This document shows positions 8,016 through 44,229 of a stretch of 64,000 nucleotides of DNA, piece after piece. The number at the start of each line of letters is the position of its first letter. Positions within the stretch are counted from its first letter, which is position 1. The translations under genes were made by a program, and so were the position numbers. Below the pieces are notes generated by a model. It had not been told where the DNA came from, ran no database searches, and saw only the letters and a program-made list of their open reading frames with translations. The DNA is from Candidatus Brocadiia bacterium (GTDB lineage Bacteria > Planctomycetota > Brocadiia > CAIUPP01), in assembly GCA_050015075.1 (NCBI GenBank), contig JBEKCB010000029.1:1-64000 (forward strand), read 5' to 3'.

Positions 8016-8080
8016 AGACAGGATTGCAGGATAAAGAGGATTCGCTTAAGTTGAATCCGGTCCATCCTGTCATCGGGTCG
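8016..8080. repeat. Imperfect hairpin with short-period arms (CAGGAT / ATCCTG)
   Basis: GACAGGATTGCAGGAT...CCATCCTGTC. Confidence 0.45.
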
Positions 8081-8093
8081 AAACCTGTCGTTC

Positions 8094-8241
8094 ATTATAA
8101 GTCATAATCTGCGGCGCGGAGCGGGCGGGGAAAGTGAGTGCGCTTGCCAGCGGGTTCAGTGCGGTTCGGAGCGGTTTAAGTGCGCTTCAGTGCGCTTCGG
8201 AGCGGTTTGAGTGCGCTTTTTTCGGCGAGTCGGATTTGACA
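8094..8241 (+). repeat. Dispersed phased-repeat element, copy A
   Basis: ATTATAA, then 43 bp from its first base the units AGTGCGCTTGCCAGCGGGTTC / AGTGCGGTTCGGAGCGGTTTA / AGTGCGCTTC / AGTGCGCTTCGGAGCGGTTTG / AGTGCGCTTTTTT, then TTGACA. Confidence 0.85.
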
Positions 8242-8366
8242 AGGGGGTTGAGATTGTCGAATGCCGACTTGTCCGCCTTAGCCCTGGCGAAGGCGGATTG
8301 CCGAATGCCGAATGATGATGGAAAAGCGTGAAGGAAAGGAAAGCGGCAGGCTGCGGCATCCTCGGC

Positions 8367-23600: not shown

Positions 23601-23845
23601 CGAGCTTCGCTTACGCGCACGAGGACATGACCTTCATCGTCCTCGCCTGCGTGGAGGAACCATTCCAGCCGGCGCCCGGCAGCCTGGTGCGCGGCGCGCG
23701 GGCCGCGGTGGGAGAATCGTCGAGCCCGCCGGACGAGCGCAGCCTGGTCGAGCTGAGGGCGCTGACCCGCTTCCCGGACGACGAGGAGCGGAGCGCGTGG
23801 CCGGCCCGGTACGCGAAGCCGGCGTCGAAACCGGTAGCGAAATGA
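20633..23845 (+). CDS. Serine hydroxymethyltransferase - glycine cleavage T protein fusion (GlyA-GcvT)
   Basis: N-terminal SHMT (NVQPLSGA, LSHGGHLTHG, FTTHKTLCGPRG, FPGLQGGP); C-terminal GcvT (FAGWEMPIQY, GLFDVSHM, RTGYTGE, GLGARDS). Confidence 0.93.
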   Translation: MTSFPFAGTPEDTNSDILHIAEAERARQWRRLIMIPSESICHPAAAEVLNGELGHIYAEGLAQPPLCHDPRGAAGDEALFQAWQTRLADRRYYKGTVNANRVELIAHRAIARVFAALDGSPGAEEIHVNVQPLSGAAANQAVYEALLQPGERVMGLDLSHGGHLTHGSVFNFSGKRYEVHSYGIEESTRRLDYGRIRERARESRPRIIIGGASAYPWDFDWAALREIADEVGAYLLADIAHLAGMVAAGILNNPLPHAHVIMFTTHKTLCGPRGAVLMTALPEIAKRLDTAVFPGLQGGPHVNSIAAIGRLFELILEDREGFVAFQRSVVENTSYFARCLAEEGFALEYAGTNTHMTLVDLKRFPVHGETFLDGEIASRLLEIAGIVCNKNVIPGDCDAAHASGLRFGLPWLTQRGVTREQLREIARLVKFTLERVRTCAIWSPTGEKKCRGRVPPGVLRTAAEKTLAIADALPYPPQPPRRVEKTPVRSAVGNRTALLLRGDKVRLALDQMLTARLPLDGSPVRAEMLDSAGRELADVIAQELEPAGRQEQWLLLPAKDRAGAVRRWIEDLSDGYLMFDEGDLQQKIDGPIAVEEFDVSQLPHEFLLRLQTHSAGSAADATKPWFVGQRKLYAALKPPPKEKYQYVPAEPPLRKTVLNAIHHQLSAKMAAFAGWEMPIQYPAGILAEHRAVRTAAGLFDVSHMSAFEVGGPHALGFLELLLANRASRLAPGEAQYSSALYPDGTHIDDLYVYRLDRERFMLVLNAANAERVMDWAAAVNSRRFAIDEEMPAKEIDAPVRLRDLRNAGDESLIGLAFQGPASSAVLRKLADKPSERVLLDRLIQNEFATVRLAGLKALVARTGYTGEKTGFEIYLHPTDAEKFWNAVLTAGRPLGVLPAGLGARDSTRVEAGFPLFGHDLEGELGISMTEAGYGFVARFHQPFFIGRAPYMERARRSRRHILRLRGQGRKTLRAGHAILDESGRAVGRVTSFAYAHEDMTFIVLACVEEPFQPAPGSLVRGARAAVGESSSPPDERSLVELRALTRFPDDEERSAWPARYAKPASKPVAK

Positions 23846-27224: not shown

Positions 27225-27666
27225 ATCGATTTTAGGATCGACGGGAGTTTCGCGACGTTCAACGTGTGCACAGAATGCAGCGTCTTCCACGACCGCAGTT
27301 TGTTTGACTTTTGTCTGCAGGGCTGATCGTGTCGTACCAAACGTATACTGGCCGTCGGGCCGGTAAGGATGGGGTGACGGCCACAGAACTACCGGGTCGC
27401 CGAGAGAGATCGGGTTTTATGAGTAAGCCTTATTGCGGTTGTCAGGGCCCCGTGGTAGAGTCGTATGAGCGGGGGCCATGATGGCGACAGTTCAAGGCGG
27501 GGGCTGCAGTGAGCAAGAGGCACGTTGGCATTCTGACGACCCTCCTCGCGCGCCACAACTGTTTTCTGCAACCGGGCCAGGGAAAAAGCGATGTGCGCCA
27601 ATCCAGGACTTCGTCGTCGCAAGAACGGGCCATGTCTCGCTCTTGCCGGGGAAAGGGGGAAGCTTT

Positions 27667-30600: not shown

Positions 30601-32283
30601 TGGATTGTGAACGGCGCGGCGCAAAGTTCCGGGCAGAAGGTCATCACGTTCACGATGGATGGGCCCGTGACGGCAGTGGCGCAGTACACGCGGAACGGCT
30701 TCGCGCTGACGGTGGAGTCCACGCCGCTGACCGGGCTGAGCATCGGCTCGAGCACGGGGCAGAAAGGGACGACGAACTACTACATCAATAAGGGCGTCGC
30801 CGATGGGACCAGCGTGAACCTGCAAGCGCCGGCGACGGACCCGTCCGGATACGCCTTCTGGCAATGGACGTTGAACGGCACGGCGCAGACGGCCGGGGAG
30901 AAGTCCATCACGTTCACGATGGATGGGGACATGACCGCTGTGGCGCAGTACACGCTCAACGGCTACGGGCTGACCGTGCAGTCCAAGCCGCCGACCGGGG
31001 TCGTGATCGGTTCAAGCACGGGCAACAACGGCACGACGAATTACGCGAATACCGTCGCATACGGCACGGCGGTGAACCTGCAGGCGCCCGCGACGGACCC
31101 GGCCGGATTCACGTTCTCGCAGTGGACGGTGAACGGCGCGGCGCAGACCGACGGGCAGAAATCCATCACGCTAACGATGGACGGCGCCGTGACGGCGGTG
31201 GCGCGCTACACGGCGAACATCGGCTACACGCTGATGGTGGAATCCGCGCCGATCGGGCTGGGCATTGATATCGGTTCGAGCACGGGCCAGAGCGGCACGA
31301 CGAACTACACGGTTCCCGACATCGCGTATGGGGCGAGCGTGAACCTGCAGGCCCCGGCGACGGACCCGGCAGGATTCACGTTCCAGCAGTGGACGCTCAA
31401 CGGCGCCGCGCAGCCTGGCGGACAGAAGTCCATCGCGTTCACGATGGATGCAGCCGTGACGGCGGTGGCGCACTACACGGCGAACACCGGCTACAAGCTC
31501 TCCGTGCAGTCCACGCCGTCCAAAGGGGACCTTATCACTTCGAGCACGTTCCACGGCGGCATAACGAACTACACGGTGCCCGGCATTACGTACGGGACGA
31601 GCGTGAACTTGCAGGCGCCGGTGACGGACCCGACGGGCTATACCTTCTCGGAATGGGCGGTGAATGGCGCGGCGCAGACTCCTGGGCAGAAGTCCATCAC
31701 GTTCACGATGGATGCGGCCGTGACGGCAGTGGCGCAGTATACATCGAACATCGGCTACATGCTCTCCGTGCAATCCACGCCGCCGGTCAAGCTGGTCATC
31801 AGTTCAAGCACGGGCCAGACCGGGACGACGAACTACACGATTCCCGGCATCGCGTACGGGGCGAGCGTGAACCTTGAGGCGCCGGCGACGGACCCGGCCG
31901 GATACACTTTCTCGCAATGGACGGTGAACGGCGCGGCGCAGATTCCTGGGCAGAAGTCCGTCACATTCACGATGGATGCGGCCGTCACGGCGGTGGCGTA
32001 CTACACAGCGAACAGCGGCTACACGCTCTCCGTGCAGTCGACGCCGCCGGTCAAGCTGGTCATCAGTTCGAGCACGGGCCAGAACGGAACGACGAATTAC
32101 ACGAAGCCCGGCATCGCGTACGGGGCGAGTGTGAACCTGGAGGCCCCGGCGACGGACCCGGCCGGGTACACCTTCTCACAGTGGAGAGTAAACGGCACAG
32201 CGCAGACCGCGGGGCAGAAATCCATCACGTTTACAATGACCGCGGCGACGACGGCCGTGGCGGTGTATGTCAAAAGCGATTAG
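27667..32283 (+). CDS. Giant secreted repeat protein: 14 ~88-aa beta-rich repeats plus 6 NHL repeats
   Basis: Signal peptide from ATG 27667; repeat unit LxVQSTPPTG...GTTNY...VNLQAPATDPxGYTFxQWTVNG...GQKSITFTM...AVAQY; NHL GQFxxPxGIAxD six times. Confidence 0.85.
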   Translation: MHLSSRTWSVWSVIAVLIAVSIAMTAARTAAAASFLLTVESTPPTELSIGSTTGDAGLTIYTVPGIGAGASVNLQAPATDPSGYTFVQWTLNATAQTAGQKAITFAMTADTLAVAQYTPIYLTVQSTPPTGVVIGSSTGNNGTTNYTSTVAYGGSVNLQAPATDPTGYTFWQWTVNGLSQGAGQKTVVIPGFGTWGSAGNLNGQFEFPEGIAVDRSGNVYVSDTDNDRIQEFTSEGVYITQWGRLGSGKGQLSGPEGIATDSDGNVYVADMYNNRIQKFTSAGVYITQWGRFGTGNGQFESPFGIALDGADNVYVVDSGNSRIQMFTSAGAYVTQWGSRGTGGGFFQIPKGIAIDRVRNLVYVADTFNYLIQEFTSTGGFITQWGSQGAGTGQFDEPYGVAVDGDGNVYVADTINSRVQEFTSAGVYVTQWGSYGSGNGQFELPDGIALDSAGNIYVADTNNMRIQVIGQVISQNILAVAQYTANNGTLVVESTPPTGLSVGSSTGDGGTTNYTVPGITAGKSVNLQAPAADPGGYTFAQWTVNGTAQPAGQKSITFTMKASRTAVAQYTLNTYALAVQSTPPTGLVIGSTTGNDGATNYSNTVPYGASVNLQAPATDPAGFTFSQWTVNGAVQTDGQKSITLTMDAAVTAVAHYTANVGYTLSVQSTPPTGLSVGSSTGQSGTTNYKNKGLAYGASVNLQAPATDPAGFTFSQWMVNGAAQPPGQKSVTFTMDAAVTAVAQYTANAGYTLSVQSAPPHKQVIGSSTGHGGTTNYMVPGVASGTSVNLQAPATDPAGYTFQQWAVNGAAQTAGQKSITFTVDGAVTAVAQYTPNIGYVLTVQSTPPTGLVVSSSTGQTGTTNYTKAGVGNGASVNLQAPAADPTGFIFLQWTVNGAAQNPGQKSVTFTMDGAVIAVAEYAADVGYTLSVESTPPTGLVIASGTGQNGRTNYTKAGVGNGASVNLGAPTVDPAGYTFSQWIVNGAAQSSGQKVITFTMDGPVTAVAQYTRNGFALTVESTPLTGLSIGSSTGQKGTTNYYINKGVADGTSVNLQAPATDPSGYAFWQWTLNGTAQTAGEKSITFTMDGDMTAVAQYTLNGYGLTVQSKPPTGVVIGSSTGNNGTTNYANTVAYGTAVNLQAPATDPAGFTFSQWTVNGAAQTDGQKSITLTMDGAVTAVARYTANIGYTLMVESAPIGLGIDIGSSTGQSGTTNYTVPDIAYGASVNLQAPATDPAGFTFQQWTLNGAAQPGGQKSIAFTMDAAVTAVAHYTANTGYKLSVQSTPSKGDLITSSTFHGGITNYTVPGITYGTSVNLQAPVTDPTGYTFSEWAVNGAAQTPGQKSITFTMDAAVTAVAQYTSNIGYMLSVQSTPPVKLVISSSTGQTGTTNYTIPGIAYGASVNLEAPATDPAGYTFSQWTVNGAAQIPGQKSVTFTMDAAVTAVAYYTANSGYTLSVQSTPPVKLVISSSTGQNGTTNYTKPGIAYGASVNLEAPATDPAGYTFSQWRVNGTAQTAGQKSITFTMTAATTAVAVYVKSD

Positions 32284-32579: not shown

Positions 32580-35210
32580 ATGGACGCCGTTACATCATTC
32601 GAAAAGCCTCTGCATGGCGCCGCCAAGGTTGTATTGATCGCCTGCGCAGGACTGCTGGTCTTCGTTTTTTACTTGTGGGCGCTGGTCTCGCTGTTGTTCC
32701 TGCTGCTGGTGGCAGCGCTTGAAATCGCGGTGGTCGTCGTCCTCATACGGTTTGGACTGGCAGCGATTGCGCTCGTTCCCCTGCAGAGCCACATTCAGCT
32801 CATCTGGCTGTTCGTCCGCAGTTTTCCGCTGAGAAAACCAGTGGAGTTCCGCATCCCGCTGAAGCGGGAAGATGCGCCGGCGCTTTTTGCCATGCTGGAG
32901 AACCTCTGCCGGCGGCTCCAATTGGCTCCGCCTGACACCGTCTTCCTCGAGATGCACCTGAACGCCTGGGTGCGACTCGAGGGTTATCAGCGGGGCGCGG
33001 GAAGAACTTTTCTGGGCGTCGGCTACGACCTGTTGGCGGGATTATCGGCCCGCGAGGTGGAGGCCGTCCTCGCCCACGAGATGGTGCACGCCAAACTCAT
33101 CCAGCGAGGCGTCAGCTATTGGCTGAAGACGGGCCTGCCGCGCATCGTCACGCTTGCGATGGCGCTCCATGCTAACGCGGAGATGCATCGCCGCGCAAAA
33201 CGCCCCGCACTTCTTGCCCGCGCGCTCCTGAAGGTGGCCGACCGGTTCGCGAGGCTCGGCACACGGCTGGTGGCAACTTACTCCAGGCAGGAGGAGTTCG
33301 CCGCCGATCGCGGCGCGGCCGAACTCTGCGGCGCCACGGTCTGCCGCTCCGCCCTGGCCGCACTCAGGACACTGTACGCAAGGACCCAAAGGATTCCCTG
33401 GCGCGAACGCGTCTCTCAACTCCAGTTGGGCGAAGGGTTCAGCCAATGGCTAGTGCAGGAACTGACGCGAACGGATTTGCCGCAATCGGCCGAGGTCGCG
33501 AAGGAGCCGTTCAACCGGTACTCCACGCACCCGACGGTGGCGGATCGCCTGGCGGCGCTCTCACAGGAACCGGCCTCTGGTCAAACTCAAGTCGCCCGGG
33601 AGCCCGGCATCGGTTTGCTTGCCGAACCTGACGCCCTGGCTGAGAAGCTGATGGCCGAGATTCAGCGCACCGTGGTGGAGCAGGAGGAGAAGGACAGCCG
33701 CGCGTTGCGACGCTGGCGCCGCAAGTCCTGCACCGGGCGCGCGCACCTTCGGCCGCTGCAACTGGTCGGCGTGATCGTTGGCTTCGCGGGCGCCCTCACA
33801 GCCATAGGACTCATTATTGCGATCGCCGGCAGCACGTCGCTCGGGGAGATAATCGCCATCGGGTTATTCGGGTTCCTTCCGTCGGTCGCACTCGGCATCG
33901 CATTATATCGCCTCGGACGCCGCCGCGACCGCATCGAGCTGCCGGTGCCCGAGTACGCGCTTCTGAAAGAGGCGGTCAAGAAAACAAAGGATACCGCCGG
34001 CCGGGAGGATGCTCAGAAGCAATTGGAAAATGAGTTCCGGGAGCTTGTGGCGAAAGAAAAGAAGCGCCGCGGAAAAGCAGCCGTATTGGCTTCTGAGAGT
34101 TACGCGGCGCTCGGCAAGTGCGAATACCTGAAGGCGCACGTCGCCGCGCGGCTCTGCCTGCAACATGCGCCGAAATCAATCGAAGGCGCGCTGGCCCTGG
34201 CGGTTGCCTCCGGCGCGCTTAACCAGGGCGCCCAGGTGACCAGGATGTTGACTTTCCTGGGCCGGCGCACGGGGTTGACGGGACAGTCAACGATATGGGG
34301 AACAGGCTGGGCGCTGTATCTCTGCGGCAATTGGGTCGAGGCCGAGGCGTTCCTCGACCAAGCGCAGGGGCAGCGTCCCGACGAGCCGACCCTCCTGATC
34401 CTGCTCGCAATCAGCCGGTCCAGGCGCGGCAAGCTGCAGAGCGCGATTATGAGCGCCCGCCAGGCCTGCGCCACGAAGGCCGCAAACAAGGAGCACGAGA
34501 AGGTGCTGATTCAACTTCTCCTGGAGGGCGGCTACCTGCGCGAGGCGCAGGAGAGATTGACGAAGCTGGAGGCGGAGATCCCAGGCGATCCCGAACTCAT
34601 GGTCTCCGCCGCCCGGATGAACCTGATGCAGCGCAAATTCGAAGCGGCGGACGAATGGACCGAACGCCTGAAGCAGGCATCCGCCGGACCGCACGTGCTG
34701 GTTCAACTTGGCGAGTTCTACGAGAGCGCCCGCAAGGACGAAAAGGCGGCCGCGCTCTTCAACCAGGCGCTGGAGAGCGCATTCTACCCGCAGGCGCTGC
34801 TGGGGCTGGCGCGGATCGAAGCCGTTCGCCATAACCGGGAATTGGCGCAGGGCCATCTGCTGGCGGCATTGAACACCAAGCGCCCGCTCGGGGAAAACGC
34901 AATCGGGCCCTTGCCGCTGTTCCATTACATCGTCGCCAGGCTCCGCATGCTCCGGGAACCGGAACCGAACTGTCAGACTTGGATTGCCTCGTTCCAGAAG
35001 GGAACCGGCCCTGCGGCAGTCCCCAATATGTCCCTCATGGTCTGCGCCCAAAGCCGCGAAGACGCAGAGAAACATGTTGCCGCGATCGTCCACGCAATGG
35101 ATCCCGAATCGTCCCTGCTCTCGACGGCAGGCATCGGATGGAAGAAAGCGCCCCAGGAGCAGCAACCGGCTGGCCCGACGTGTCCGGGCATTCTGAGCGC
35201 CTTATCCTAA
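32580..35210 (+). CDS. M48 (HtpX-like) membrane metalloprotease with TPR-like C-terminus
   Basis: VLAHEMVH (HExxH), SRQEEFAAD, STHPTVADR; transmembrane segments; helical repeats. Confidence 0.85.
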   Translation: MDAVTSFEKPLHGAAKVVLIACAGLLVFVFYLWALVSLLFLLLVAALEIAVVVVLIRFGLAAIALVPLQSHIQLIWLFVRSFPLRKPVEFRIPLKREDAPALFAMLENLCRRLQLAPPDTVFLEMHLNAWVRLEGYQRGAGRTFLGVGYDLLAGLSAREVEAVLAHEMVHAKLIQRGVSYWLKTGLPRIVTLAMALHANAEMHRRAKRPALLARALLKVADRFARLGTRLVATYSRQEEFAADRGAAELCGATVCRSALAALRTLYARTQRIPWRERVSQLQLGEGFSQWLVQELTRTDLPQSAEVAKEPFNRYSTHPTVADRLAALSQEPASGQTQVAREPGIGLLAEPDALAEKLMAEIQRTVVEQEEKDSRALRRWRRKSCTGRAHLRPLQLVGVIVGFAGALTAIGLIIAIAGSTSLGEIIAIGLFGFLPSVALGIALYRLGRRRDRIELPVPEYALLKEAVKKTKDTAGREDAQKQLENEFRELVAKEKKRRGKAAVLASESYAALGKCEYLKAHVAARLCLQHAPKSIEGALALAVASGALNQGAQVTRMLTFLGRRTGLTGQSTIWGTGWALYLCGNWVEAEAFLDQAQGQRPDEPTLLILLAISRSRRGKLQSAIMSARQACATKAANKEHEKVLIQLLLEGGYLREAQERLTKLEAEIPGDPELMVSAARMNLMQRKFEAADEWTERLKQASAGPHVLVQLGEFYESARKDEKAAALFNQALESAFYPQALLGLARIEAVRHNRELAQGHLLAALNTKRPLGENAIGPLPLFHYIVARLRMLREPEPNCQTWIASFQKGTGPAAVPNMSLMVCAQSREDAEKHVAAIVHAMDPESSLLSTAGIGWKKAPQEQQPAGPTCPGILSALS

Positions 35211-35618
35211 GTCCAAATGACCTCGGAATGAGGCAGGAACTTGCGGGCGCGGAAGAGGCGCTCGGATCAGCCGCCTGACCGGGGCCGGCCCGAATTCAAT
35301 CGCGCGGCGCGTCGAAAACGGCGATGCTGAATAGTCGTGCGCCGTACGCGGCGCACTCTTGATGTTTGGAAAACCCCGCTTTCGCCGACTCGATAGCCGG
35401 CGGGTTAAGCGAGTCGTTTCCGATGCTGCTCGGCATCCGTTACCTGCTCATTCTTGCCATGGCCGTCTACGCGCTGTCGGCGTTGCGCCCAAGGAAAATG
35501 GCAGGGCAGGGAGTATTGGCATGATCAAGAGCCTGCACTGGTGGGGGCAGCCGCGCAGTCCACGCGGCGCGGAGTTTCCATCATCACCGCCACGACGGCG
35601 ATCCGCCGCTGTTCTCCT

Positions 35619-36518
35619 TCAACCTCCAGGCCCGGCGCAGAGGTCGAGCCGATACCAGATCTCCCGACCGACGGGGGTTGATTTCATCCGGTGGGCAAAG
35701 TTGGCGAACGCCTTGAACTGCGTGTCATCTGTCCTGAAGCGAACGGTCTTGTAGCCGGCCTCTACGCCCTTCTGGAAGGTGCGATGCCACATGGCGATTG
35801 TGACCCAACTGGAGCGGAACTCCTCATCCACCACGTCATAAGGCGCCTCGGCCTTGCCGTCCGTGACATGGACGACCAGCGCGCCCACGACGCGCGGTTC
35901 CATCAGGACGACCGTCGAGAGATCCGGCTGCACGCGTGAACCCGGAACCTTCCAATCCACGTCCTGCACGTTGGTCAGGTATCGTCTGATCAACTCCGCC
36001 ACCGGCATGAGCGGCGCCTCGCGCAGCGCGATCACGCGTCCGTTGGCGGGAACGCCGCCCTTCCGCTCGATCCATCGGTGTGCGGACTGCACGGCCTTCC
36101 AGCCGGCCTCCACATCCATATCGTAATGCACGAGCGTCTGGAACGGCTGGAAGGCAAGTTCCCGCAGGAGGCTCTCCGCCGGCGAGCCCTCGAGTACGCC
36201 GCCTTGCACGGTCAGGCGCTCGGCGCCGGCGGCGCGCGCCTGCGCTATGCACCCCGCAACCAGCAGACGGCCCGCCTCTGCAGGGACGCCCGGCTCTGTC
36301 GCCCACTCGAAGAGGGCGGACTCTCCTCCGCGCGGGCCGGGACTGATGAGGAAGCTCGCCGCGCCCAGGACGCGCCGGTCCCCGACGGACTCCGCGACGA
36401 GGCACCGAATGCGGTCCGGCGCCATCGCAATCCGCGGAAGCAGCCGCAGCAGCCGTGGCGTGTCCGCCGGGCGCGCCGGGCGCAAGCGCATGGTGGAAGC
36501 GGAATGGGCCGCGCTCAT
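35619..36518 (-). CDS. Tandem GNAT-fold acyltransferase-like protein
   Basis: MRLRPARPAD start; GRLLVAGCIAQARAAGAERL motif; second GNAT-like half; ATGA overlap with upstream gene. Confidence 0.65.
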   Translation of the reverse strand: MSAAHSASTMRLRPARPADTPRLLRLLPRIAMAPDRIRCLVAESVGDRRVLGAASFLISPGPRGGESALFEWATEPGVPAEAGRLLVAGCIAQARAAGAERLTVQGGVLEGSPAESLLRELAFQPFQTLVHYDMDVEAGWKAVQSAHRWIERKGGVPANGRVIALREAPLMPVAELIRRYLTNVQDVDWKVPGSRVQPDLSTVVLMEPRVVGALVVHVTDGKAEAPYDVVDEEFRSSWVTIAMWHRTFQKGVEAGYKTVRFRTDDTQFKAFANFAHRMKSTPVGREIWYRLDLCAGPGG

Positions 36519-39277
36519 GCCTGGGCCTCTTTTTCCGGCGCTGACCGCTGACGGTACAGCTTCGGCCTGACGGCCGCCGCCATGGCCTCGGGCCTCTTGA
36601 TCCATTCCGGGCCGAGGAACTTCTGCAACTGCTCAACCGCCCTGGCCGGGTCCTCCACCACGTCGGGGTAATCGAGGATCAGGCACTTCAAGTGCTTCAC
36701 CTTCGCGATCCCTTTCAGAACGTTGTCCTGATGACTCCGGAGCATCGCCAGCAAGCGGTTGCGGTCCGGCGCGGGTTTGCCCATGTGTTCGAGCATCTTC
36801 GCCTGCGACGCGGCAATCTCTTCCGGCGGCCGCCACATGAAGATCACCTTGTACGCGTGGATGCGAGGCAGCGCGCCCAGCGACAGCGAGACGACCTTCA
36901 CCGCCTTGCCTTCCGTCTTCTCGATCAGGCGCGGGTTGCGGCGGAGCTGCCGGATCGGCTGCCACTCATAATAACCTTCGGGGTTGTCCTCGTTGGCCTG
37001 GCGGAGGGTGTCACTCATGATGGGGACACCTCCCGCCTCCAGCATCTGCATCATCAGAGAGGTGCCGGAGCGCGGCAGGCCGGACACGATGAGGAACTCC
37101 TTGCCGGACGAGCCGGGCGCGCCGGCGCGTGGGGCGGCCGGCGCCGCTGCGGCCGGTTCCGCCGGCAGGGCCGACACCGCCTCCATCAGCCGCTGCGCCT
37201 CCTCGTCGCGCCGGGCCTCGCGGACGCGGTCCCGCTCGGCGATCTCCTCGCGAAGCTTGTGCATGCGCTCGCGCGTCTTCGCGACTCGGGCCAGGCATTC
37301 CTGACGCAGGCGGCTGTGCTCGACGGCCTTGTCGTTCCCGCCCGGCGTCCGCAGGTAGAGCATTGCGAGGATCGCGTGGATGTCCGGGCGCGCAGGAAGG
37401 AAACGCGCGGCCGTTTCGAGCGCCTCGATGGCGCGCTGAGTCCGGCCGGTGCGAGCGAGGGCCTTGCCCAGGCAGAGGTGCGCCTCGCCGAGGCTGAATT
37501 CCAGTCCGATGGCGCGCATCGCCGCCTCCGCCGCGGGCTCATGCGAGCGGCTCCGCAGGAGGCAGCGAGCGACGCCCAGGTGCGCCAGGGGCGCGTCAGG
37601 GTCCAGTTCCAGCGCGCGCTCGAAGGCGCGCTGCGCGTCGCGGTAGCGCCGGAGATGAAAGTAAGCCCGTCCCAGATACACCAGGACGTGCGGCCGGCGC
37701 GAGTCGGCCTGGTCCACCGCCTCCAGGTGCGCCAGCGCCGCCTCCGGGCGCCCGCACTGCTGCTCCGCCACGCCCAGCAGCAGGCGCGCCCGCGCGTCGC
37801 CGGGGAACGCCTCCGACAGGTTTCGCAGCAGCTCGTACGCCTCCTTCTTGAGTCCGAGCACGAACTGGCACTCGGCGAGGAGCACGCCCATATCCAGCCG
37901 CAGCGGGTTCCGGTCGTACACCTCTTCCAGCAGCGGCAACGCCTGGGCGAATCGGCGGGAGAAAAAGTATATCCGCGCCAGGGTCCACCGGTTCTCCTGG
38001 CGGGTCATCTCGGCGAAGGCGGTCGTATCGCCGTCGCGCGGGGCCTCGACGTAGCCCAGCGCCACGAATTGCTCGATCAGCGCCTTCGAGTCGTCCGCGC
38101 TCATCGTCGCGCCTTTGGGATGCATGCCCGCCGGGCCGGGGACTTCTTCCCAGGAGAGAATCGTCTCCACCGCGGGCGGAGCGACGAACGCCTCGGCCAG
38201 GGAGCGCCCGTCCATGTCACGGCCGGCGGGCAGCCCGAAAAGCGTCAGCACCGTCGGGGCGATGTCCAGCACGCTCGCGCCGTGGATCAGCTCGTCCTGC
38301 CGGATCCCCGGACCCTTCATCGCCAGGACGCCGATGGGGCGGTGCTCCTCCGCCGGGCCGGCCGAGATCGAGGGCGGCCGCAGCAGACGCTGCTCTCCGG
38401 CGTGCCAGCCGTGGTCGGAGCAGAGAATCACCGTCGCATCCTCGCCGGCCAGTTGCAGCAGGCGCCCCAGCAGCAGGTCGTTCAGGCGATAGCCGCTGTT
38501 GACCACGTCGCTGTACAGCTCGAACTCGCGCTCGTTGATCCACGGCAGCCGCGGGGGGTGGTAGCGCATGAATCCATGGCAGAGATGGTCAATGGCGCCG
38601 TAGTAGACGGCGGCGAAATCCCATGGCTCGCGCTCCATGGCCCAGGTGATCGCGGCATGCACCGAGAGGCACTCGGCGAGCTGGCAGGCGATGACCTCCA
38701 GCCGGCGGTCGTTGGTCTGGTCCACCTCGCGGTAGCGCGGGACGAAGAGGCCGATGGTCTGCGAGTCTATGTCCTTCGGCCGAACGCACAGCTCGGCGAC
38801 TTTCGACGCCAGGTCAGCGGGATGGACCACGCCCTTCCCGACCGGCGGCGCCTTCGCCCGGCTGCTCTGCGCCGCCCGGCCGAACAGCTCCGAGATGCAC
38901 ACCCCGCTGATCGGCTCCGCCGGGTGGCCGGCGAACCAGTTCACGACGTGGGTCTTCAGGCCCTTCTGCGAGAGGATATTCCAGATGGCTTTGACCTTGC
39001 GGGAGAGGCTGCTGGCCGCGCGCACCTCATGGGCGGCCTCATCAATCTCCGTGAAGCCGATGATCCCGTGCTTGTCCGGCAGCATGCCGGTGGCGATCGA
39101 ATTCCAGATCAGAGGGGAATAGGTCGGGCGCAGGGTGGAGAGATTGCCCATGACGCCGCCGTTGACCAGGCGGCGCAAATTGGGCAGCTCCCCGCGGTCC
39201 AGCAGGGGATGGATGATCGTCCAATCGGCGCCGTCCCAGCCGATCAACAGCACCCGGCGTTTTCCAGGGGCAGCCAT
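36515..39277 (-). CDS. Alkaline-phosphatase-superfamily phosphodiesterase - TPR - sulfotransferase fusion
   Basis: LLIGWDGADW, SPLIWNSIATG, DHLCH, CSDHG (NPP-type); several TPRs; IVSGLPRSGTSLMMQML PAPS-binding loop and NPEGYYE. Confidence 0.9.
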   Translation of the reverse strand: MAAPGKRRVLLIGWDGADWTIIHPLLDRGELPNLRRLVNGGVMGNLSTLRPTYSPLIWNSIATGMLPDKHGIIGFTEIDEAAHEVRAASSLSRKVKAIWNILSQKGLKTHVVNWFAGHPAEPISGVCISELFGRAAQSSRAKAPPVGKGVVHPADLASKVAELCVRPKDIDSQTIGLFVPRYREVDQTNDRRLEVIACQLAECLSVHAAITWAMEREPWDFAAVYYGAIDHLCHGFMRYHPPRLPWINEREFELYSDVVNSGYRLNDLLLGRLLQLAGEDATVILCSDHGWHAGEQRLLRPPSISAGPAEEHRPIGVLAMKGPGIRQDELIHGASVLDIAPTVLTLFGLPAGRDMDGRSLAEAFVAPPAVETILSWEEVPGPAGMHPKGATMSADDSKALIEQFVALGYVEAPRDGDTTAFAEMTRQENRWTLARIYFFSRRFAQALPLLEEVYDRNPLRLDMGVLLAECQFVLGLKKEAYELLRNLSEAFPGDARARLLLGVAEQQCGRPEAALAHLEAVDQADSRRPHVLVYLGRAYFHLRRYRDAQRAFERALELDPDAPLAHLGVARCLLRSRSHEPAAEAAMRAIGLEFSLGEAHLCLGKALARTGRTQRAIEALETAARFLPARPDIHAILAMLYLRTPGGNDKAVEHSRLRQECLARVAKTRERMHKLREEIAERDRVREARRDEEAQRLMEAVSALPAEPAAAAPAAPRAGAPGSSGKEFLIVSGLPRSGTSLMMQMLEAGGVPIMSDTLRQANEDNPEGYYEWQPIRQLRRNPRLIEKTEGKAVKVVSLSLGALPRIHAYKVIFMWRPPEEIAASQAKMLEHMGKPAPDRNRLLAMLRSHQDNVLKGIAKVKHLKCLILDYPDVVEDPARAVEQLQKFLGPEWIKRPEAMAAAVRPKLYRQRSAPEKEAQA

Positions 39278-39330
39278 GACGCTCCTTCCGGTCTCATCAT
39301 ATCATGCGCCCGCGATGACGCAACACGGCC

Positions 39331-40590
39331 TCATCCCCAGTTCCAGTCGGGCCGGCGCTGGTTCAGGGCCACGCCCACTTGGAAGGGCATGGCCTTACCG
39401 CCTGGCCCGATGTGCCACACGCCCGTCTGGCGGTGCTCGTCGAGGTCGAGAGTCGTAATATCCGACCAGGCGAACATGCGAATGCGGTACATCTGCAATC
39501 CCCTGGGGTCTCGCACGCGCCGCCACAGCGCCTGTTCCGGGCCCGCCTCGGGCCGGCGCTCGCCGGCGGTCGTCTCGCCGCGCTGATGGATCGGCTCGGA
39601 GAACCGGAAATCCCGGACCGTCCGCCCGTCGCCGCCGTCGCACAGAAGCCAGACGAAGAAGTGCGTCGTTCCATGATAGACCGGTTCCAGGCGCAGGCCG
39701 TCGAGCAGGGCGGCGCGGTCCACGCCCCACGCCTCGCAGAGACGGCCGAGCGTTTCGCCGGCAAACGATCCTCTCACGTCATGATGCCGCCCGATGGCGG
39801 CATGGGTGCGAACCCGCAGGCTGCTCAGTCGGGCGCGGCGCTCGGCGAGGAACCGGACCATCGCCGGGAGTGTGTCGTCGTTCACGCCGGGGACGAGTGT
39901 GACGGACACGACCGGCTCAATCTCCGAGCGCATCAGGTTCTCGAGCGCAGCGAGCTTCTGCTGGAGCAGCGCGCGGCCTTCAATCGCCATGAAGACCCGC
40001 TCATCCAGACCGTTCAGCGAGAACAGGCACCGCCTGAGGCCGGCGTCCGAAAGCCGGGAGACCAAAGCCGGGTCCTGCAGCGCCAGCCCGTTCGTTGCGA
40101 TGCAGGTGTCCCGTTCCCGGCGGACGGCGTAGGAAATGAGATCCGGCAGGTCTTCCCGGACGGTCGGCTCTCCGCCCGAGAACACTATGAACGGGCCCTC
40201 GAAATCGTCTATCATGCGCCGGACCGCCCGAGGACTGGGGTCTGGAATCGCGTCGTCCGGGTAGAAGCACATGCTGCAGTGCAGGTTGCAGCGGTGGGTA
40301 ATAGGGATGACGAGTGTGACACCGGGCCGCGCGGGCGGGTCGGGGTTCATCAGGGCGCGGTAGACGGCCTCCTCCTGCTCCACCTGCGCGCGGAACGGCC
40401 CGTGGTCGGGACAGGCCTTTTCCATGAAGACACCTTCCGGCTCAGCGACGACCGTGGCCGGGATTTCGCGGCAGCACTGTGGGCAGAGACTGCGGGCGTG
40501 CTCCTTCAGCACGCGACGCTCGTCCGCATTAAAAGGGCAAGCGCCGCCGGGGTTCGCCCGGCGGCGCTTGGAATCGGAAGTATAGGTCAT
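39331..40590 (-). CDS. Radical SAM protein, MJ0619/Tes-like with N-terminal metal ribbon
   Basis: SLCPQC...MEKACPDHG ribbon; CNLHCSMC; FSGGEPT; ATNG. Confidence 0.88.
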   Translation of the reverse strand: MTYTSDSKRRRANPGGACPFNADERRVLKEHARSLCPQCCREIPATVVAEPEGVFMEKACPDHGPFRAQVEQEEAVYRALMNPDPPARPGVTLVIPITHRCNLHCSMCFYPDDAIPDPSPRAVRRMIDDFEGPFIVFSGGEPTVREDLPDLISYAVRRERDTCIATNGLALQDPALVSRLSDAGLRRCLFSLNGLDERVFMAIEGRALLQQKLAALENLMRSEIEPVVSVTLVPGVNDDTLPAMVRFLAERRARLSSLRVRTHAAIGRHHDVRGSFAGETLGRLCEAWGVDRAALLDGLRLEPVYHGTTHFFVWLLCDGGDGRTVRDFRFSEPIHQRGETTAGERRPEAGPEQALWRRVRDPRGLQMYRIRMFAWSDITTLDLDEHRQTGVWHIGPGGKAMPFQVGVALNQRRPDWNWG

Positions 40591-41252
40591 GCCGCTGGCT
40601 GACGGCGGCGCAGGGCCGCCAGACCCGCCGCGCCCATCGCCAGGAGGGCCAGGGTCGTCGGCTCCGGGACCGAGGTGGTGTCGGGCACGTGGATGGGGCT
40701 GCCATCGTCCTGGAATGCGTATGCGAACAACGTTGCGCTGTCATACGCGTTCATCTGCAGGTCCGCCCAGCCGTACAGCGGGGTGCCGGCGTCGTCGAAT
40801 TGCAGGCCCAAGTACGCGCGCGTCCCCGGCGCCCAGTCTCCGAACGAGCGGGTCCCGCCCGCGCTCACCAGGTTTACACCCATGAACAGGGATCTATAGA
40901 CGGTAGCCGACGGGCCCATGTTGTGACTGGCCGGAACCGGCAGAGCCTTGGCGTCTATCCCCTCGATGGCCGCCCCTGGCTGGACCCCCCGAATGACCAT
41001 GGCGTTGATACTTGAGTTTCGCGCGTTTTTGATAGCGAACTGATCGTTCGGTCCCGGCGCAGACGGATTCGTCATGACATTCCCGGCCAGGTCGAAGCTC
41101 AGCAGGTACTGATTGTCCCCTGTGCCCGTCCAACCGCCCGGTGTGGTGAAATACTCGATGGTGGCCTGTGCCGAGCCACCCGCAGCAAATACAGCTCCAA
41201 CTGCCGCCGAGTACGCGACCAACTTCTTATCCAATAGCATCTTGGCCCTCAT
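40587..41252 (-). CDS. PEP-CTERM sorting domain protein
   Basis: Signal peptide KKLVAYSAAVGAVFAAGGSAQA; C-terminal VPEPTTLALLAMGAAGLAALRRR; RBS GAGGAGG before ATG 41252. Confidence 0.92.
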   Translation of the reverse strand: MRAKMLLDKKLVAYSAAVGAVFAAGGSAQATIEYFTTPGGWTGTGDNQYLLSFDLAGNVMTNPSAPGPNDQFAIKNARNSSINAMVIRGVQPGAAIEGIDAKALPVPASHNMGPSATVYRSLFMGVNLVSAGGTRSFGDWAPGTRAYLGLQFDDAGTPLYGWADLQMNAYDSATLFAYAFQDDGSPIHVPDTTSVPEPTTLALLAMGAAGLAALRRRQPAA

Positions 41253-41330
41253 CTGATCTCTCCTCCTCGCAACAGTAAGCCGAGTGCCTCCCAACAGCCC
41301 CCAATGCGGAGACAGCCTTAGCTTTCCCCA

Positions 41331-41346
41331 AGCAATTCCTGTTCCT
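41331..41346 (-). promoter_or_regulatory. Possible sigma54 -24/-12 promoter of the PEP-CTERM operon
   Basis: Minus strand AGGAACAGGAATTGCT (GG-N10-GC spacing); TGT-N12-ACA inverted repeat at 41466-41483 further upstream. Confidence 0.35.
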
Positions 41347-41604
41347 TATAGTTGCACGGCAATCAGAATTGCGCCATATTGTCCTAAGACACTGTTTGAT
41401 AAGGAAATACCTTTGTGGTCCGCGATTGTCCGTCATAGCCTTGCTATACCGCGGCCTGCCAAGAATGTCGTGTCTTCTAAACACATTTTAGCCGCGACTG
41501 TCCATAACCAATTTCCAAACAGCGGCTTGCGAATAACGCCACGATCCTGGTTCGCGTGTTGACTATACTCTACACAAGGGTTGCGGGACGCCCAACGTCT
41601 CAAG

Positions 41605-42963
41605 TCAAGGACGGCCGCTTGTCGAGGGCGATTGAAGGGCGGCGTCGAGGGAAAGCAGCGCGCGCACCAGTTCGTCGTGAACGTCGGCGAACGGAACGGT
41701 CCCGCCCATGAGCGGAACGAAGCCCGCCGCATAACCGGTGGCCTTGGCTGCGGTTTCGCGATCGGGCGCGTAGCCGAGGGTGTCGTTGGTGATGCCCATG
41801 ACCAGCGGGAGCGGCGCCTTGGCTTTCGCGACGACTTCCTGCTTGATGGCGCGGAAGGTCTCCAGGGGCGATCCGAGGAACTCGATGGGGCCCACGCGGA
41901 TTCCCTGCACGTCCGTCGGCGTCTCGAACGGCTGTCCCGACTCTTTGAGCGCGATCAATCTCCGCAACGCAATGACATAGACCGTGGCAAGGCGGACTTC
42001 GCTGGCCGCGTCATCGGCATTCGGCGCGTGCAGGACCGCCTCCTTCTCCGCGAGCATCGCGCGCAGTTTCTCCAGGTCCCAGGACGCGCGGCGGAACGTC
42101 ACTTCGCGCAGGGCATAGCGGATCGAGTCCACCGTCAATGGCTTCGCCGCTGCAAGTCCCGCGCGCACGGAGCGCGCGTAGCGCTCGGCGATGACATCGA
42201 GAGCGCGGAGCGATATGGCCTCCGGGTGATGGACGAAGCACGCATTGATGTCCCCTTGCGCGCCCTGCAGGAACAGCCCGGTGGCGCCGGGGTTTTCCTG
42301 CTCAATCTTATTCGTGGCGACGCCGGCGTAATCCCCGTGGATGTAGCGCGTCTCTTCGCAGCAGACCACGGGATGGCAGCCGAAGTAACTGAAGAACCCG
42401 ATGGTCCGCCCGTCCGCTTGCGCCTTGAAGACATGGGCCGTGGTATCGGTGAGTTCGGGCTTGGCGGGCCGCCAATCGTCGCGCAGGACGACATTCGGGT
42501 CTTTCTCGCGAACGTCATATTCACGGTTATATGACATCCCTTCGCACGGAACTTCCGCATGAGAGAGCGCGGCCTCGCGCAGGTGCTCGACGGCGTCTAT
42601 GCAGGCCCGGGCGATGCGGCCGGGCAGGATTTCAAGGTAGGGCGCGTCCGGATCGCCCCAGCCGATGGACCTGCCGGTGCTGGGGCCGCTGTGAGTGTGG
42701 GTGCAATGGACCATGATGGCCTCGGCCGGGATGCCGGTGGCGCCGGTGACGAGCTTCCGGACACCCTGCGCCATGGTGCGCGGCACGCCGATCAGGTCGC
42801 AGCTCACGACGACGGCGGTCGCGCCGCCTTGCTCCATCGCCATGGCTCGCGCCCAGAGCCGGTCGCGCACGGCGATGGACTGGCGGTTGCGGAACGGGCC
42901 GAAGCCGGCGAGGTCCACGCCCACGCGCGGCGTAATGTCGCGCCTGCCGAATCCGATCCTCAT
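41605..42963 (-). CDS. Neutral/alkaline ceramidase-like (N-terminal domain) hydrolase
   Basis: GRRDITP, RDRLWARA, CTHTHSGP, GCHPV, FLQGAQGDIN. Confidence 0.8.
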   Translation of the reverse strand: MRIGFGRRDITPRVGVDLAGFGPFRNRQSIAVRDRLWARAMAMEQGGATAVVVSCDLIGVPRTMAQGVRKLVTGATGIPAEAIMVHCTHTHSGPSTGRSIGWGDPDAPYLEILPGRIARACIDAVEHLREAALSHAEVPCEGMSYNREYDVREKDPNVVLRDDWRPAKPELTDTTAHVFKAQADGRTIGFFSYFGCHPVVCCEETRYIHGDYAGVATNKIEQENPGATGLFLQGAQGDINACFVHHPEAISLRALDVIAERYARSVRAGLAAAKPLTVDSIRYALREVTFRRASWDLEKLRAMLAEKEAVLHAPNADDAASEVRLATVYVIALRRLIALKESGQPFETPTDVQGIRVGPIEFLGSPLETFRAIKQEVVAKAKAPLPLVMGITNDTLGYAPDRETAAKATGYAAGFVPLMGGTVPFADVHDELVRALLSLDAALQSPSTSGRP

Positions 42964-42969
42964 GTCAGT

Positions 42970-44229
42970 TCAGCCCTTTGCCTTGGCCGACTTCAAGAGC
43001 TCGGCGCGGCCTTCGTAGATCTTCGCGATGGCGTCCATCAGGAGGCCGGCGCGCGCCGGCGGGCAGCCGAAGAAGCGCCAGCCGGTCACAATGGCGCTGT
43101 CCTTCCAGAGGTCGTCGGCCACGGGCAGGTGCCAGCGCGCCGGCGTAATCGCCTTGACGTAAGCCGGGCTCAGCTTATGCCGCCGCTTGAGCTGGGGAGA
43201 ATAGAGGTCGCTGTGCGAAAGCGGCGTGTAGGTGCTCCCGAACCCGACGCCCAGTTCCGCGGAAAGGGCGCGGCGGAACGCGGCGCCGCTCAGGCCGTCG
43301 AACGCTTCCTTGTCGTACCGGAAAACGAAGCAGTATCCGCACTGGCGCGTAATGTGCTTGTCGCGGCGCAGCGGTTTCACGCCGGGCGCCGCGGCCACGG
43401 CCTTGTCAAGCGCCAGGCCGTTGCGGTCAATCAGCGGCGCGTTCTTCCTGAAAGCCGCCAGTTGCCCGCGCAGGATCGCCGCCTGAAAACTGCCCATGCG
43501 GAAATTCCCGCTGTGAATCCTGCAGCCCGGCTTGAATTCCCGGCCACACGCCTTCAAGCTGACGGCCTTCCAATAATAGTCTTCCTTCTGCATCAGCAGG
43601 CAGCCGCCTTCGCCGCCGGTGATCAGCTTGGACATCTGGAAGCTGTAGGAGCCGAAATCGCCCATCGTCCCTGCGCCATGGCCATCCCACTGCGAGCCGT
43701 GTGCGTGGGCGCAGTCCTCGATGATGTGGAGATGGTGTTTCCTGGCGATGCGCCGGATCGCGTTCATATCGGCCATGCGATGGTAGAGATGCACGGGAAT
43801 GATGGCGCGCGTGCGCCGCGTGACGGCCTGTTCCACCTTCAGCGGGTCAATGCACAGCGTCTCGGGATCCACGTCCACCATGACCGGCACGGCGTTGACG
43901 TCGCACACCACCGCGGCGGTGGCCTGCCAGGTCAGGCCGGGGACGATCACTTCGTCGCCGGCTCCGATGTCCAGCGCCTCCAGGGCGATCTGCATGGAAT
44001 GCGTCCCGTTCGTAACCAGGGCGCAGTACTTGGACTTGCTGAACGCCGCCCATTCCTTTCGGAATGCCGCGGCCATGGTCTGCGTCGCCTCCGGCCAGTC
44101 ATCCCACATCCCGCTCTTGTACGCCTGAAGCAGGTACCTCTGCTCAAGGTCGCGGCGCCGCGGAAAGCGGCACTCGCGCTGGAGATTCCTGGCAACAGGA
44201 ACGCCGCCGAGAAGCGCAAGCTTGCTCAC
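42970..44229 (-). CDS. DegT/DnrJ/EryC1/StrS PLP aminotransferase
   Basis: NGTHS, IIPVHLY, IEDCAHAHG, SFQMSKLITGGEGG, GNFRM. Confidence 0.92.
   Translation of the reverse strand: MSKLALLGGVPVARNLQRECRFPRRRDLEQRYLLQAYKSGMWDDWPEATQTMAAAFRKEWAAFSKSKYCALVTNGTHSMQIALEALDIGAGDEVIVPGLTWQATAAVVCDVNAVPVMVDVDPETLCIDPLKVEQAVTRRTRAIIPVHLYHRMADMNAIRRIARKHHLHIIEDCAHAHGSQWDGHGAGTMGDFGSYSFQMSKLITGGEGGCLLMQKEDYYWKAVSLKACGREFKPGCRIHSGNFRMGSFQAAILRGQLAAFRKNAPLIDRNGLALDKAVAAAPGVKPLRRDKHITRQCGYCFVFRYDKEAFDGLSGAAFRRALSAELGVGFGSTYTPLSHSDLYSPQLKRRHKLSPAYVKAITPARWHLPVADDLWKDSAIVTGWRFFGCPPARAGLLMDAIAKIYEGRAELLKSAKAKG

Follow-up and report, generated by a model that had tools for sequence, protein, structure and literature searches.

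A surface protein and an AlkP-TPR fusion enzyme as a conserved gene pair in a four-gene operon of a Candidatus Brocadiia bacterium

Organization of the operon and its two central proteins

The operon described here lies at 35619-41252 on the minus strand of a 64,000-nt window (positions 1-64,000 of contig JBEKCB010000029.1, from a Candidatus Brocadiia bacterium), the window being the whole stretch of DNA that was analysed. Its four co-oriented genes encode, head to tail, a PEP-CTERM surface protein, a radical SAM (S-adenosylmethionine) enzyme, a fusion of an alkaline phosphatase (AlkP)/phosphodiesterase domain with a TPR region and a sulfotransferase domain, and a tandem GNAT protein. An original prediction for this DNA had described the arrangement as a single, tightly coupled operon, and the gene order and junctions it gave were all confirmed: ATGA stop/start overlaps join the surface gene to the radical SAM gene (40587-40590) and the fusion gene to the GNAT gene (36515-36518), and a gap of 53 nt (39278-39330) separates the radical SAM and fusion genes. 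On the downstream side, the operon is closed by a convergent gene encoding an M48-peptidase/TPR protein. The genes and the principal domains are as follows.

40590-41252 (40587 with stop), minus strand: surface protein gene, 221 aa, ATG at 41252
41163-41252, minus strand: leader and signal peptide of the surface protein, residues 1-30, MRAKMLLDKKLVAYSAAVGAVFAAGGSAQA
40602-40673, minus strand: PEP-CTERM sorting domain, residues 194-217 (PF07589, TIGR02595)
39334-40590 (39331 with stop), minus strand: radical SAM enzyme gene, 419 aa
36518-39277 (36515 with stop), minus strand: fusion gene, 920 aa
38402-39253, minus strand: AlkP-superfamily phosphodiesterase domain of the fusion, residues 9-292 (Phosphodiest PF01663, 87.5 bits vs 23)
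about 37310-37981, minus strand: TPR region of the fusion, residues ~433-656
36602-37093, minus strand: PAPS (3'-phosphoadenosine 5'-phosphosulfate)-type sulfotransferase domain of the fusion, residues 729-892 (Sulfotransfer_3 PF13469, 40.5 bits vs 27; Sulfotransfer_1 PF00685, 25.5 bits vs 22)
35622-36518 (35619 with stop), minus strand: tandem GNAT-fold protein gene, 299 aa

An AGGAGG motif stands 9 nt 5' of the surface gene ATG at 41252, and the longest open reading frame (ORF), which opens with TTG at 41294, probably has an over-extended start. The GNAT start at 36518 was preferred over the ATG at 36605 because homologue alignments begin at residues 2-7 of the protein read from it. The G+C content at third codon positions (GC3) of the minus-strand genes is 0.76-0.89, and the large plus-strand ORFs (36692-39586 and 39379-40602) are shadow frames of this region of 65-70% GC.

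The tail of the surface protein scores above the cut-offs of both PEP-CTERM models (PF07589, 28.9 bits vs 20.7; TIGR02595, 29.1 bits vs 16). At the other end, a signal peptide was read by eye from the sequence, with a basic n-region, an Ala-rich core and AQA before T31. Members of the family share this N-terminal design, in which a long basic stretch is followed by the motif [DE]x[KR]LxxY directly ahead of the Ala-rich hydrophobic core of the signal peptide and then by AxA. Four motifs of the window protein had been singled out in the original prediction, namely KKLVAYSAA (residues 9-17), YLGLQF (147-152), YGWADL (160-165) and AYAF (177-180), the first being called a distinctive leader. All four are present, and the leader is conserved, with L11 retained in 54 and Y14 in 57 of 70 aligned family members. 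In the body, the same 70 members keep G149 (66), F152 (62), Y160 (58), G161 (68), W162 (69) and a Tyr at position 180 (59), the position at which the window protein carries Phe. Because they are conserved across the aligned members, the motifs are signatures of the family.

The body of the surface protein is predicted to be a beta-sandwich carrying YxGxxF, YGW and AYx motifs (AlphaFold2 (AF2) model with a predicted local distance difference test (pLDDT) score of 79.9; strands between residues 49 and 181, helices at 6-17 and 198-217). No structure in the PDB matched this fold at E <= 0.001, the best hit having an E of 0.095 with template modelling (TM) scores of 0.11-0.19, and the weak, non-significant nearest folds were carbohydrate-binding modules and lectins. 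No Pfam or NCBIfam model scored above its cut-off for the body, the one partial hit being to PepA (36 bits vs 80), and the ESM Atlas returned unnamed clusters only; the family is one without a Pfam or NCBIfam name.

The fusion enzyme has no signal peptide, and the AlkP fold begins no more than 10 residues from the N-terminus in 21 of 21 aligned fusions. D15, S54, D230, H234, D288 and H289 are invariant in these fusions, and we take them to be the two-metal site and the nucleophile known from nucleotide pyrophosphatase/phosphodiesterase (NPP) enzymes. In the sulfotransferase part, the loop PRSGTS and the pair R102...S110 are invariant in 29 domains and presumably represent the 5'-phosphosulfate loop and the 3'-phosphate motif, respectively. 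The fusion enzyme, judged by these features, looks cytoplasmic and active. Compared with solved structures, the sulfotransferase profile matched human protein-tyrosine sulfotransferase 1 (TPST1, 5wrj) best (E 6.9e-7), followed by phenol sulfotransferases (E 6e-6) and TPST2; the similarity amounts to a weak 32 bits, with phenol sulfotransferases scoring almost the same, so that a phenolic or tyrosine acceptor is a lead, not proof. The TPR region gave weak matches to models of the SycD/LcrH chaperones. Among 8000 candidates scored, 3469 relatives of the fusion were found at E <= 0.001. The 120 relatives listed are 863-943 aa long and show 43-99% identity at a query coverage of at least 96%, and their names, where they have any, are 'alkaline phosphatase family protein' or 'AlkP superfamily/TPR' only. 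The fusion family is thus very large and has no characterised member.

Conservation of the surface protein-fusion pair across phyla

One genome per species was scanned with the aligned fusions. At least 608 stretches matched, of which at least 597 were confirmed, and the best 80 were taken with 10-kb flanks (individual loci are designated L001 and so on). The best identity of these 80 loci to the window is 53%, and the window's own close relatives are not among them. ORFs in the loci were defined simply as the longest open frames, a rule which over-extends some starts, and phylum labels were taken from record titles. The profile of the surface-protein family was built from residues 31-192, excluding the signal peptide and the PEP-CTERM tail, so that similarity of the tails cannot drive the matches.

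With this profile, 73 ORFs were detected in 46 of the 80 loci. In 36 of the 46, the nearest family member lies within 400 bp of the fusion gene, a placement for which uniform distribution in the flanks predicts ~5% (binomial P ~3e-38, for loci that are not phylogenetically independent). Seventy loci have at least 900 bp upstream of the fusion gene and could be evaluated for gene order: a family member directly precedes the fusion gene on the same strand in 29 of them, a neighbour on one side or the other is a member in 34, and 44 have a member no farther than 3 kb away, the last figure comprising 12/12 Verrucomicrobiota and 15/34 Acidobacteriota loci among others. The positive loci come from Verrucomicrobiota, Acidobacteriota, Planctomycetota, Gamma-, Beta- and Deltaproteobacteria, Nitrospirota and Bacteroidota. 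Tandem paralogues of the surface protein are common, with up to seven before one enzyme gene (L004). The surface protein and the fusion enzyme are therefore a conserved pair across phyla, adjacent far more often than expected.

The original prediction had proposed the neighbourhoods of homologues of the 920-aa fusion as a check on all four genes. The surface protein-fusion pair recurs across phyla as just described; the full set of four does not. By clade profile, the 80 loci contain no member of the radical SAM clade (two generic ORFs scored 37-38 bits, vs 626-689 for clade members), and the GNAT family was found in only 4/80, as separate genes flanking the fusion. The conserved unit is accordingly of two genes. 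Searches of the 80 loci with the window proteins by tblastn gave the surface protein in 15, the GNAT protein in 3, the radical SAM enzyme in 1 (a generic match of 25% identity) and other window neighbours in 0 to 1.

The C-terminus of the fusion varies between loci. It is usually a PAPS-type sulfotransferase and sometimes a tandem GNAT, and sometimes nothing follows the TPR region. Many Acidobacteriota have the AlkP-TPR part only, their matches ending near query residue 650-680, and still keep the partner and its leader, from which the AlkP-TPR part emerges as the core and the sulfotransferase as an accessory.

The C-terminus of the partner varies as well. Among 33 aligned members of the surface-protein family, Pfam identified PEP-CTERM tails in 19, VPDSG-CTERM tails in 2 and the Por_Secre_tail of the type IX secretion system (T9SS) in 2, showing that sorting tails are interchangeable within one family of body and leader. 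Many Acidobacteriota members (L002, L004, L005, L009, L021, L029 and others) end in another type of tail, 'P(A/T)TLGxLAxG..L..WR(R/Q)', with no PEP; none of the sorting-signal models names this 'PATLGxLAxG...WRR' type, which may be an undescribed variant sorting signal. What is linked to the fusion is the body with its leader, whichever sorting pathway is used. The leader motif is kept equally well beside fusions lacking a sulfotransferase, Y14 being present in 32/33 members there and in 23/34 beside fusions that have one. Beyond the family itself, a leader-only hidden Markov model found no other ORF in the window at E <= 0.1. In L047, one of the loci with no family member near the fusion gene, a 424-aa ORF upstream of it (7602-8876) joins the family leader (DRRLEAY...) to a different, Gly/Ser-rich body, a sequence which suggests that the leader can travel with other cargo.

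The genes downstream of the fusion are heterogeneous, unrelated housekeeping genes, and no recurrent polysaccharide cluster was present among the 68 of 136 downstream ORFs that were scanned. Several enzymes were seen beside the pair in one locus each: an ASST arylsulfotransferase with a T9SS tail (L058:7095-9647), an FGE-sulfatase-domain protein (L025:12942-13880), a 2-oxoglutarate (2OG)-Fe(II) oxygenase (L077:4677-5294) and an O-methyltransferase (L061:14971-15588).

Accessory enzymes, expression signals and neighbouring genes

The radical SAM protein of the window (Radical_SAM PF04055, 79.2 bits vs 29.5; HMPTM zinc ribbon PF23545, 54.9 bits) consists of an N-terminal CxxC...CxxH zinc ribbon, a CxxxCxxC core and a C-terminal domain at about residues 255-419. 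This last domain, of ~165 residues, matched no family model, and the ESM Atlas placed it in unnamed clusters only. C36, C39, C60, H63, C101, C105 and C108 are invariant in 11 clade members, and the C-terminal part has a conserved motif, FAW...DL.E..Q.G..H.GP.G..PF. Downstream of the radical SAM motif there are four Cys (163, 188, 285 and 317), none of them invariant in the clade, and hence no auxiliary-cluster cysteines; likewise, no SPASM or PqqD domain, the latter representing the recognition element (RRE) of ribosomally synthesized and post-translationally modified peptide (RiPP) enzymes, was matched in the four operon proteins. Among solved structures, the archaeal tetraether synthase GDGT-MAS comes closest (7tol; E 2.1e-31, residues 30-252). 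The description 'Tes-like' in the original prediction suits the zinc ribbon and radical SAM core, that is, the N-terminal two thirds, and does not extend to the C-terminal part: the scores against Tes (NF045702, 115.3 bits vs 450, best stretch residues 94-251) and TrsS (NF045646, 158.3 bits vs 490) are far below the cut-offs for membership.

The clade is small, with 12 clusters at 296 bits or more (43-91% identity) before a drop to 142 bits, and includes one Chloroflexi-named record. No fused forms were found; the only long match was an 893-aa radical SAM/AMP-binding protein of 36% identity. A role as an anSME-like maturase of the AlkP domain was considered and rejected, given the lack of SPASM, the invariant Ser as putative nucleophile and the absence of the enzyme from 80/80 loci. 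What assigns the radical SAM enzyme to the system is the local operon structure only. In a Sulfotelmatobacter metagenome-assembled genome (L033:11533-13276), the fusion gene is directly followed by a gene of PqqD-like (RRE) type and one for a 419-aa radical SAM enzyme from a different clade, which hints at repeated recruitment of radical enzymes.

All GNAT sequence models scored below cut-off for the 299-aa protein (best, Acetyltransf_6, 20.1 bits vs 22). Its AF2 model (30 sequences; pLDDT 92.2) nevertheless matched, in Foldseek, the tandem GNAT MAB_4324 (7q3a; E 4e-15, TM 0.70), followed by the clavulanate tandem GNAT (2wpw), N-myristoyltransferases (NMT) and MshD, so the earlier label 'tandem GNAT' is right by predicted fold. 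As to the acyl-CoA-binding motif, the family consensus has R....G in the N-terminal half, where the window protein has Val at the Arg position, and R235..W238 in the C-terminal half is invariant. An exhaustive search gave 168 representative clusters of relatives in total at E <= 0.001. All ten of the long relatives that were scanned (969-1030 aa) have an AlkP-TPR part followed by the GNAT-like region, which takes the C-terminal place otherwise occupied by the sulfotransferase. These natural AlkP-TPR-GNAT gene fusions tie the fourth gene of the window to the third independently of position. In three Verrucomicrobiae loci the separate GNAT gene lies between the surface gene and the fusion gene, and in L060 it directly follows a fusion without a sulfotransferase domain. 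GNAT-like relatives are also found fused to DUF4915 (P0147 and P0190, 653 and 722 aa) and to TPR alone (P0235, 567 aa).

Two further features concern expression of the operon.

41253-41604, minus strand: upstream intergenic region of 352 bp, presumed operon promoter region
40538-40570, minus strand: perfect 14-bp GC-rich hairpin, then CCCUUUUAAU (folding free energy (dG) -36.7 kcal/mol, z -4.0; 0/200 shuffles fold as well)

In the upstream region, a weak sigma-54-like -24/-12 candidate, AGGAAC-N5-TTGCT, lies at 41346-41331, 79 nt upstream of the surface gene start; with up to two mismatches allowed, the pattern occurs 17 times in the window against an expected 25, and in the absence of enrichment the candidate is a lead only. 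No sigma-70-like site was found on the operon strand. The hairpin begins 17 nt past the surface gene stop and lies within codons 7-17 of the radical SAM gene, where it may act as an attenuator or stabilise the transcript. Structure of unusual stability (z < -2.5) also follows 11 of 70 family genes in other loci, vs 0 of 80 control windows inside fusion genes. In Aquincola, pepA is reported to be more highly transcribed than the downstream TPR gene prsT (PMC9850573). Stable structure after the family genes fits a structural gene expressed above the enzymes, as with pepA and prsT, and in the window the hairpin would keep the surface-protein transcript above that of the enzymes.

Around the operon, an 876-aa M48/HtpX-like peptidase fused to TPR repeats is encoded at 32580-35210 on the plus strand, converging on the operon, and a GC-rich 8-bp hairpin with a T-rich tail (35337-35356) lies between the ends of the two. 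Upstream of the operon and on the same strand (41605-44229) lie genes for a protein whose N-terminal half alone is ceramidase-like (62 bits in Pfam) and for a DegT-type sugar aminotransferase. Farther away, all on the plus strand, a 1601-aa protein at 27478-32283 combines NHL repeats with InlB B-repeat/Flg_new domains; its NHL part resembles the scytonemin PEP-CTERM protein ScyF (218.9 bits vs cut-off 350), and a tail regex found no PEP-CTERM tail in it. A single 1070-aa ORF at 20633-23845 encodes both a serine hydroxymethyltransferase domain (residues 90-428) and a GcvT aminomethyltransferase domain (658-935), an unusual fusion of one-carbon enzymes that sits downstream of gcvH and gcvP1/P2 (13908-17124). 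A 668-aa protein at 17776-19782 has no Pfam match and a partial match to the heparin/heparan-sulfate lyase HepB (141.9 bits vs cut-off 600), and may have a bearing on the use of sulfated glycans by the organism. No exosortase was matched among 37 ORFs scanned in the 64-kb window. PADLOC found no defence family in the operon, its only matches being generic radical SAM similarity to pVip (41.5 bits) and a TPR match (17.7 bits).

Candidate function in surface-protein tailoring and relation to known systems

The locus can be regarded as the window's version of a widespread, unnamed two-part system. The first part would be a Sec-exported, C-terminally sorted beta-sandwich surface protein with [DE]x[KR]LxxY ahead of the signal-peptide core, and the second a putatively cytoplasmic enzyme made of an AlkP-superfamily phosphodiesterase domain, a TPR array and a variable C-terminus. 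We propose, with a probability of roughly 0.4, that this TPR-guided enzyme tailors the surface protein in the cytoplasm before export, with lineage-specific add-ons. The TPR array would capture the new pre-protein, most likely by its leader, and the attached domains would modify it before Sec export, with the AlkP domain carrying out phospho-ester chemistry and the sulfotransferase O-sulfation; the signal peptide would then be removed and the PEP-CTERM tail processed by an exosortase. In the window's lineage, the add-ons would be the separate tandem GNAT protein, for acyl transfer, and the rare Tes/HMPTM-type radical SAM enzyme. A bolder form of this proposal is doubtful, namely that of a widespread leader-directed tailoring pathway acting before export, in which the AlkP-TPR enzyme reads [DE]x[KR]LxxY and phospho-ester, sulfate, acyl or radical-derived modifications are introduced via interchangeable C-terminal or neighbouring domains. 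Such a pathway, found in at least six phyla and independent of the sorting machinery, would be a protein-scale counterpart of RiPP maturation.

Complex modelling of the TPR region with the surface protein had also been suggested in the original prediction. The whole fusion together with surface-protein residues 1-75 scored 0.42, and the best of three controls scored 0.00, which is weak support: in calibration, 116 of 157 solved complexes reached the mark, as did 2 of 215 mismatched pairs, and scores of 0.60 or under account for 18 of the 157 as well as for both passing mismatches. At least 39% of contacts are shared between runs, and the partner has a pLDDT of 39 or more. Set beside the strong prior from the neighbourhoods, the prediction may add a small increment.

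Several observations weigh against tailoring of the surface protein before export. The complex prediction is weak, and no interface was reported by the tool. No family member lies within 3 kb of the fusion gene in 26 of the 70 evaluable loci, implying that the enzyme also acts in trans or has other substrates. No acceptor residue can be named. A tyrosine conserved only where the sulfotransferase is present was not found among the aligned members: Y160 (YGW) and Y180 (AYE) are equally kept with or without it, and the window protein itself has F, not Y, at position 180. Sec substrates are normally exported unfolded and fast, and tailoring of a 160-residue beta-sandwich before export has few precedents. 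As for the add-ons, the radical SAM enzyme lacks RiPP hallmarks, with no SPASM domain, no RRE in the operon and no occurrence in the 80 related loci, and the Arg found in the N-terminal half of most relatives is missing from the window GNAT protein.

The enzymes might instead have a substrate other than protein (an envelope glycan, a lipid or a small metabolite, for example), whose product the surface protein binds, is anchored to or delivers, so that the genes are linked without the protein being a substrate. AlkP-superfamily, PAPS-sulfotransferase, GNAT and Tes-type radical SAM enzymes mostly act on small molecules, lipids or glycans, the radical SAM enzyme has the lipid-coupling GDGT-MAS as its nearest solved relative, and the folds nearest to the surface body, although non-significant, are of carbohydrate-binding type. 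Moreover, PEP-CTERM proteins such as PepA are reported to work with exopolysaccharide (PMC9850573). The DegT-type aminotransferase and ceramidase-like genes just upstream would also be at home in such chemistry, but by tblastn they recur in only 1/80 and 0/80 of the fusion loci, respectively, and no polysaccharide or lipid gene recurs beside the pair in the downstream ORFs scanned. The body and leader are kept while the anchor switches between exosortase-type and T9SS-type, which argues against anchor or glycan chemistry as the common link, and a small-molecule enzyme needs neither a TPR array nor a conserved cleavable leader. A non-protein substrate is rather unlikely. It is unlikely that the AlkP-TPR protein is a cytoplasmic chaperone, targeting factor or regulator whose TPR region docks only, for example a nucleotide or PAP(S) phosphodiesterase controlling the production or export of the partner. 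The AlkP catalytic-type residues and the PAPS motifs are invariant, and two different transferases, a sulfotransferase and a GNAT, are fused to one scaffold, which is more easily explained by tailoring of a shared bound substrate. Consistent with such a role are the many Acidobacteriota in which the AlkP-TPR core has no transferase domain, the Pfam description of PF01663 enzymes as typically nucleotide pyrophosphatases or phosphodiesterases, the binding of secretion substrates by TPR proteins such as the SycD/LcrH chaperones, whose models the TPR region weakly matches, and the weak complex prediction, which fits docking as well as catalysis.

The radical SAM gene, possibly with the whole arrangement, could also be a lineage-specific juxtaposition in which that enzyme serves an unrelated pathway; we consider this unlikely. 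Its clade is missing from the 80 loci and comprises only 12 clusters, one record among them bearing a Chloroflexi name, and the search for fused forms found none that links it to the other parts. Yet its gene overlaps the stop of the surface gene through ATGA and lies 53 nt from the fusion gene. In addition, the relatives P0276 (radical SAM, 51% identity) and P0005 (fusion, 57%) are each listed with two contigs, the longest of 22,245 bases, so that a shared contig is suggested, not proven, and in L033 the position directly after the fusion is taken by another radical SAM gene together with a PqqD-like one.

The nearest described counterparts of the locus are pepA-prsT by layout, RaxST/RaxX by chemistry, and RiPP clusters and the pre-export tailoring of adhesins by logic. 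In the XrtA/PEP-CTERM system of Aquincola and Zoogloea, a small, highly transcribed PEP-CTERM gene is likewise followed by a less transcribed TPR gene (PMC9850573). The window protein matches floc_PepA (NF033554) beyond the tail (residues 116-218, 36.2 bits), and the TPR region of the fusion matches PrsT (TIGR02917) with 71.9 bits. Both scores are far below the cut-offs (an equivalog cut-off of 80, and 312.2), and the PepA match covers profile positions 176-260 of 261 only, so membership was rejected in both cases. Whereas PrsT is an NCBIfam TPR lipoprotein without enzyme domains, the fusion here has no signal or lipobox, its N-terminus runs directly into the AlkP fold, and it carries AlkP and sulfotransferase domains; its partner family, moreover, also uses T9SS and VPDSG tails. 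In RaxST/RaxX of Xanthomonas and the animal TPSTs, a PAPS-dependent sulfotransferase is reported to sulfate a ribosomally made, exported polypeptide (PMC4646787, PMC4892823). The window shares with them the GxPRSGT loop, and TPST1 is the best match of its sulfotransferase profile. RaxX differs from the surface protein of the window in being a short peptide, and RaxST is not known to carry AlkP or TPR domains.

The layout had originally been likened to that of a RiPP cluster with the surface protein as 'precursor'. With respect to the defining features of RiPP clusters, the analogy is reasonable in its logic, in that there are a conserved N-terminal leader, tandem paralogous 'precursor' genes before the enzyme and variable tailoring domains, with a radical SAM gene directly after the 'precursor' gene in the window. 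The likeness does not extend to the product, which is not a peptide but a folded domain of ~160 residues, by prediction a beta-sandwich, with a Sec signal peptide and a C-terminal sorting signal, nor to the operon, which has no RRE, SPASM domain, protease or transporter. Serine-rich-repeat adhesins of the accessory Sec pathway and HMW1/HMW1C have unusual, extended signal peptides and are modified in the cytoplasm before export by enzymes of neighbouring genes, much as is proposed for the surface protein of the window; these systems, however, glycosylate and use dedicated export or partner-secretion machinery, and none of their families was detected here. The Tes/GDGT-MAS and HMPTM radical SAM enzymes align with the window enzyme over the zinc ribbon and core, whereas its C-terminal 165 residues are unrelated and match no named family. 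The 'choice-of-anchor' families of NCBIfam, a label given to proteins in which one body domain occurs with alternative C-terminal sorting signals, offer a parallel to the surface protein, but no model matches, choice_anch_S being found in 1 of 33 members at an E of 0.0094 only. The locus thus belongs to described groups at the superfamily level only, and falls outside PepA, PrsT, Tes, TrsS and the RiPP-type radical SAM maturases. No literature linking PEP-CTERM/exosortase proteins to a sulfotransferase, radical SAM or AlkP-TPR enzyme was found in a search that did not extend to subscription journals.

Tailoring of an exported protein by adjacent enzymes is a known kind of process, and there is a credible chance that a distinct, widespread pathway is represented here; the recurring pair points to a so far undescribed decoration of surface proteins, one that probably takes place before export. 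PEP-CTERM and T9SS cargo proteins are abundant in poorly studied soil and water bacteria, and the chemistry that precedes their display is almost unknown. If the fusion is a leader-guided protein sulfotransferase/phosphodiesterase, a function would be provided for thousands of 'alkaline phosphatase family protein' annotations, together with a new recognisable leader motif and a second bacterial case of exported-protein sulfation. The modular C-terminus, with a sulfotransferase, a GNAT or neither, and the lineage-specific radical SAM enzyme would then constitute a natural toolbox for the modification of surface proteins.

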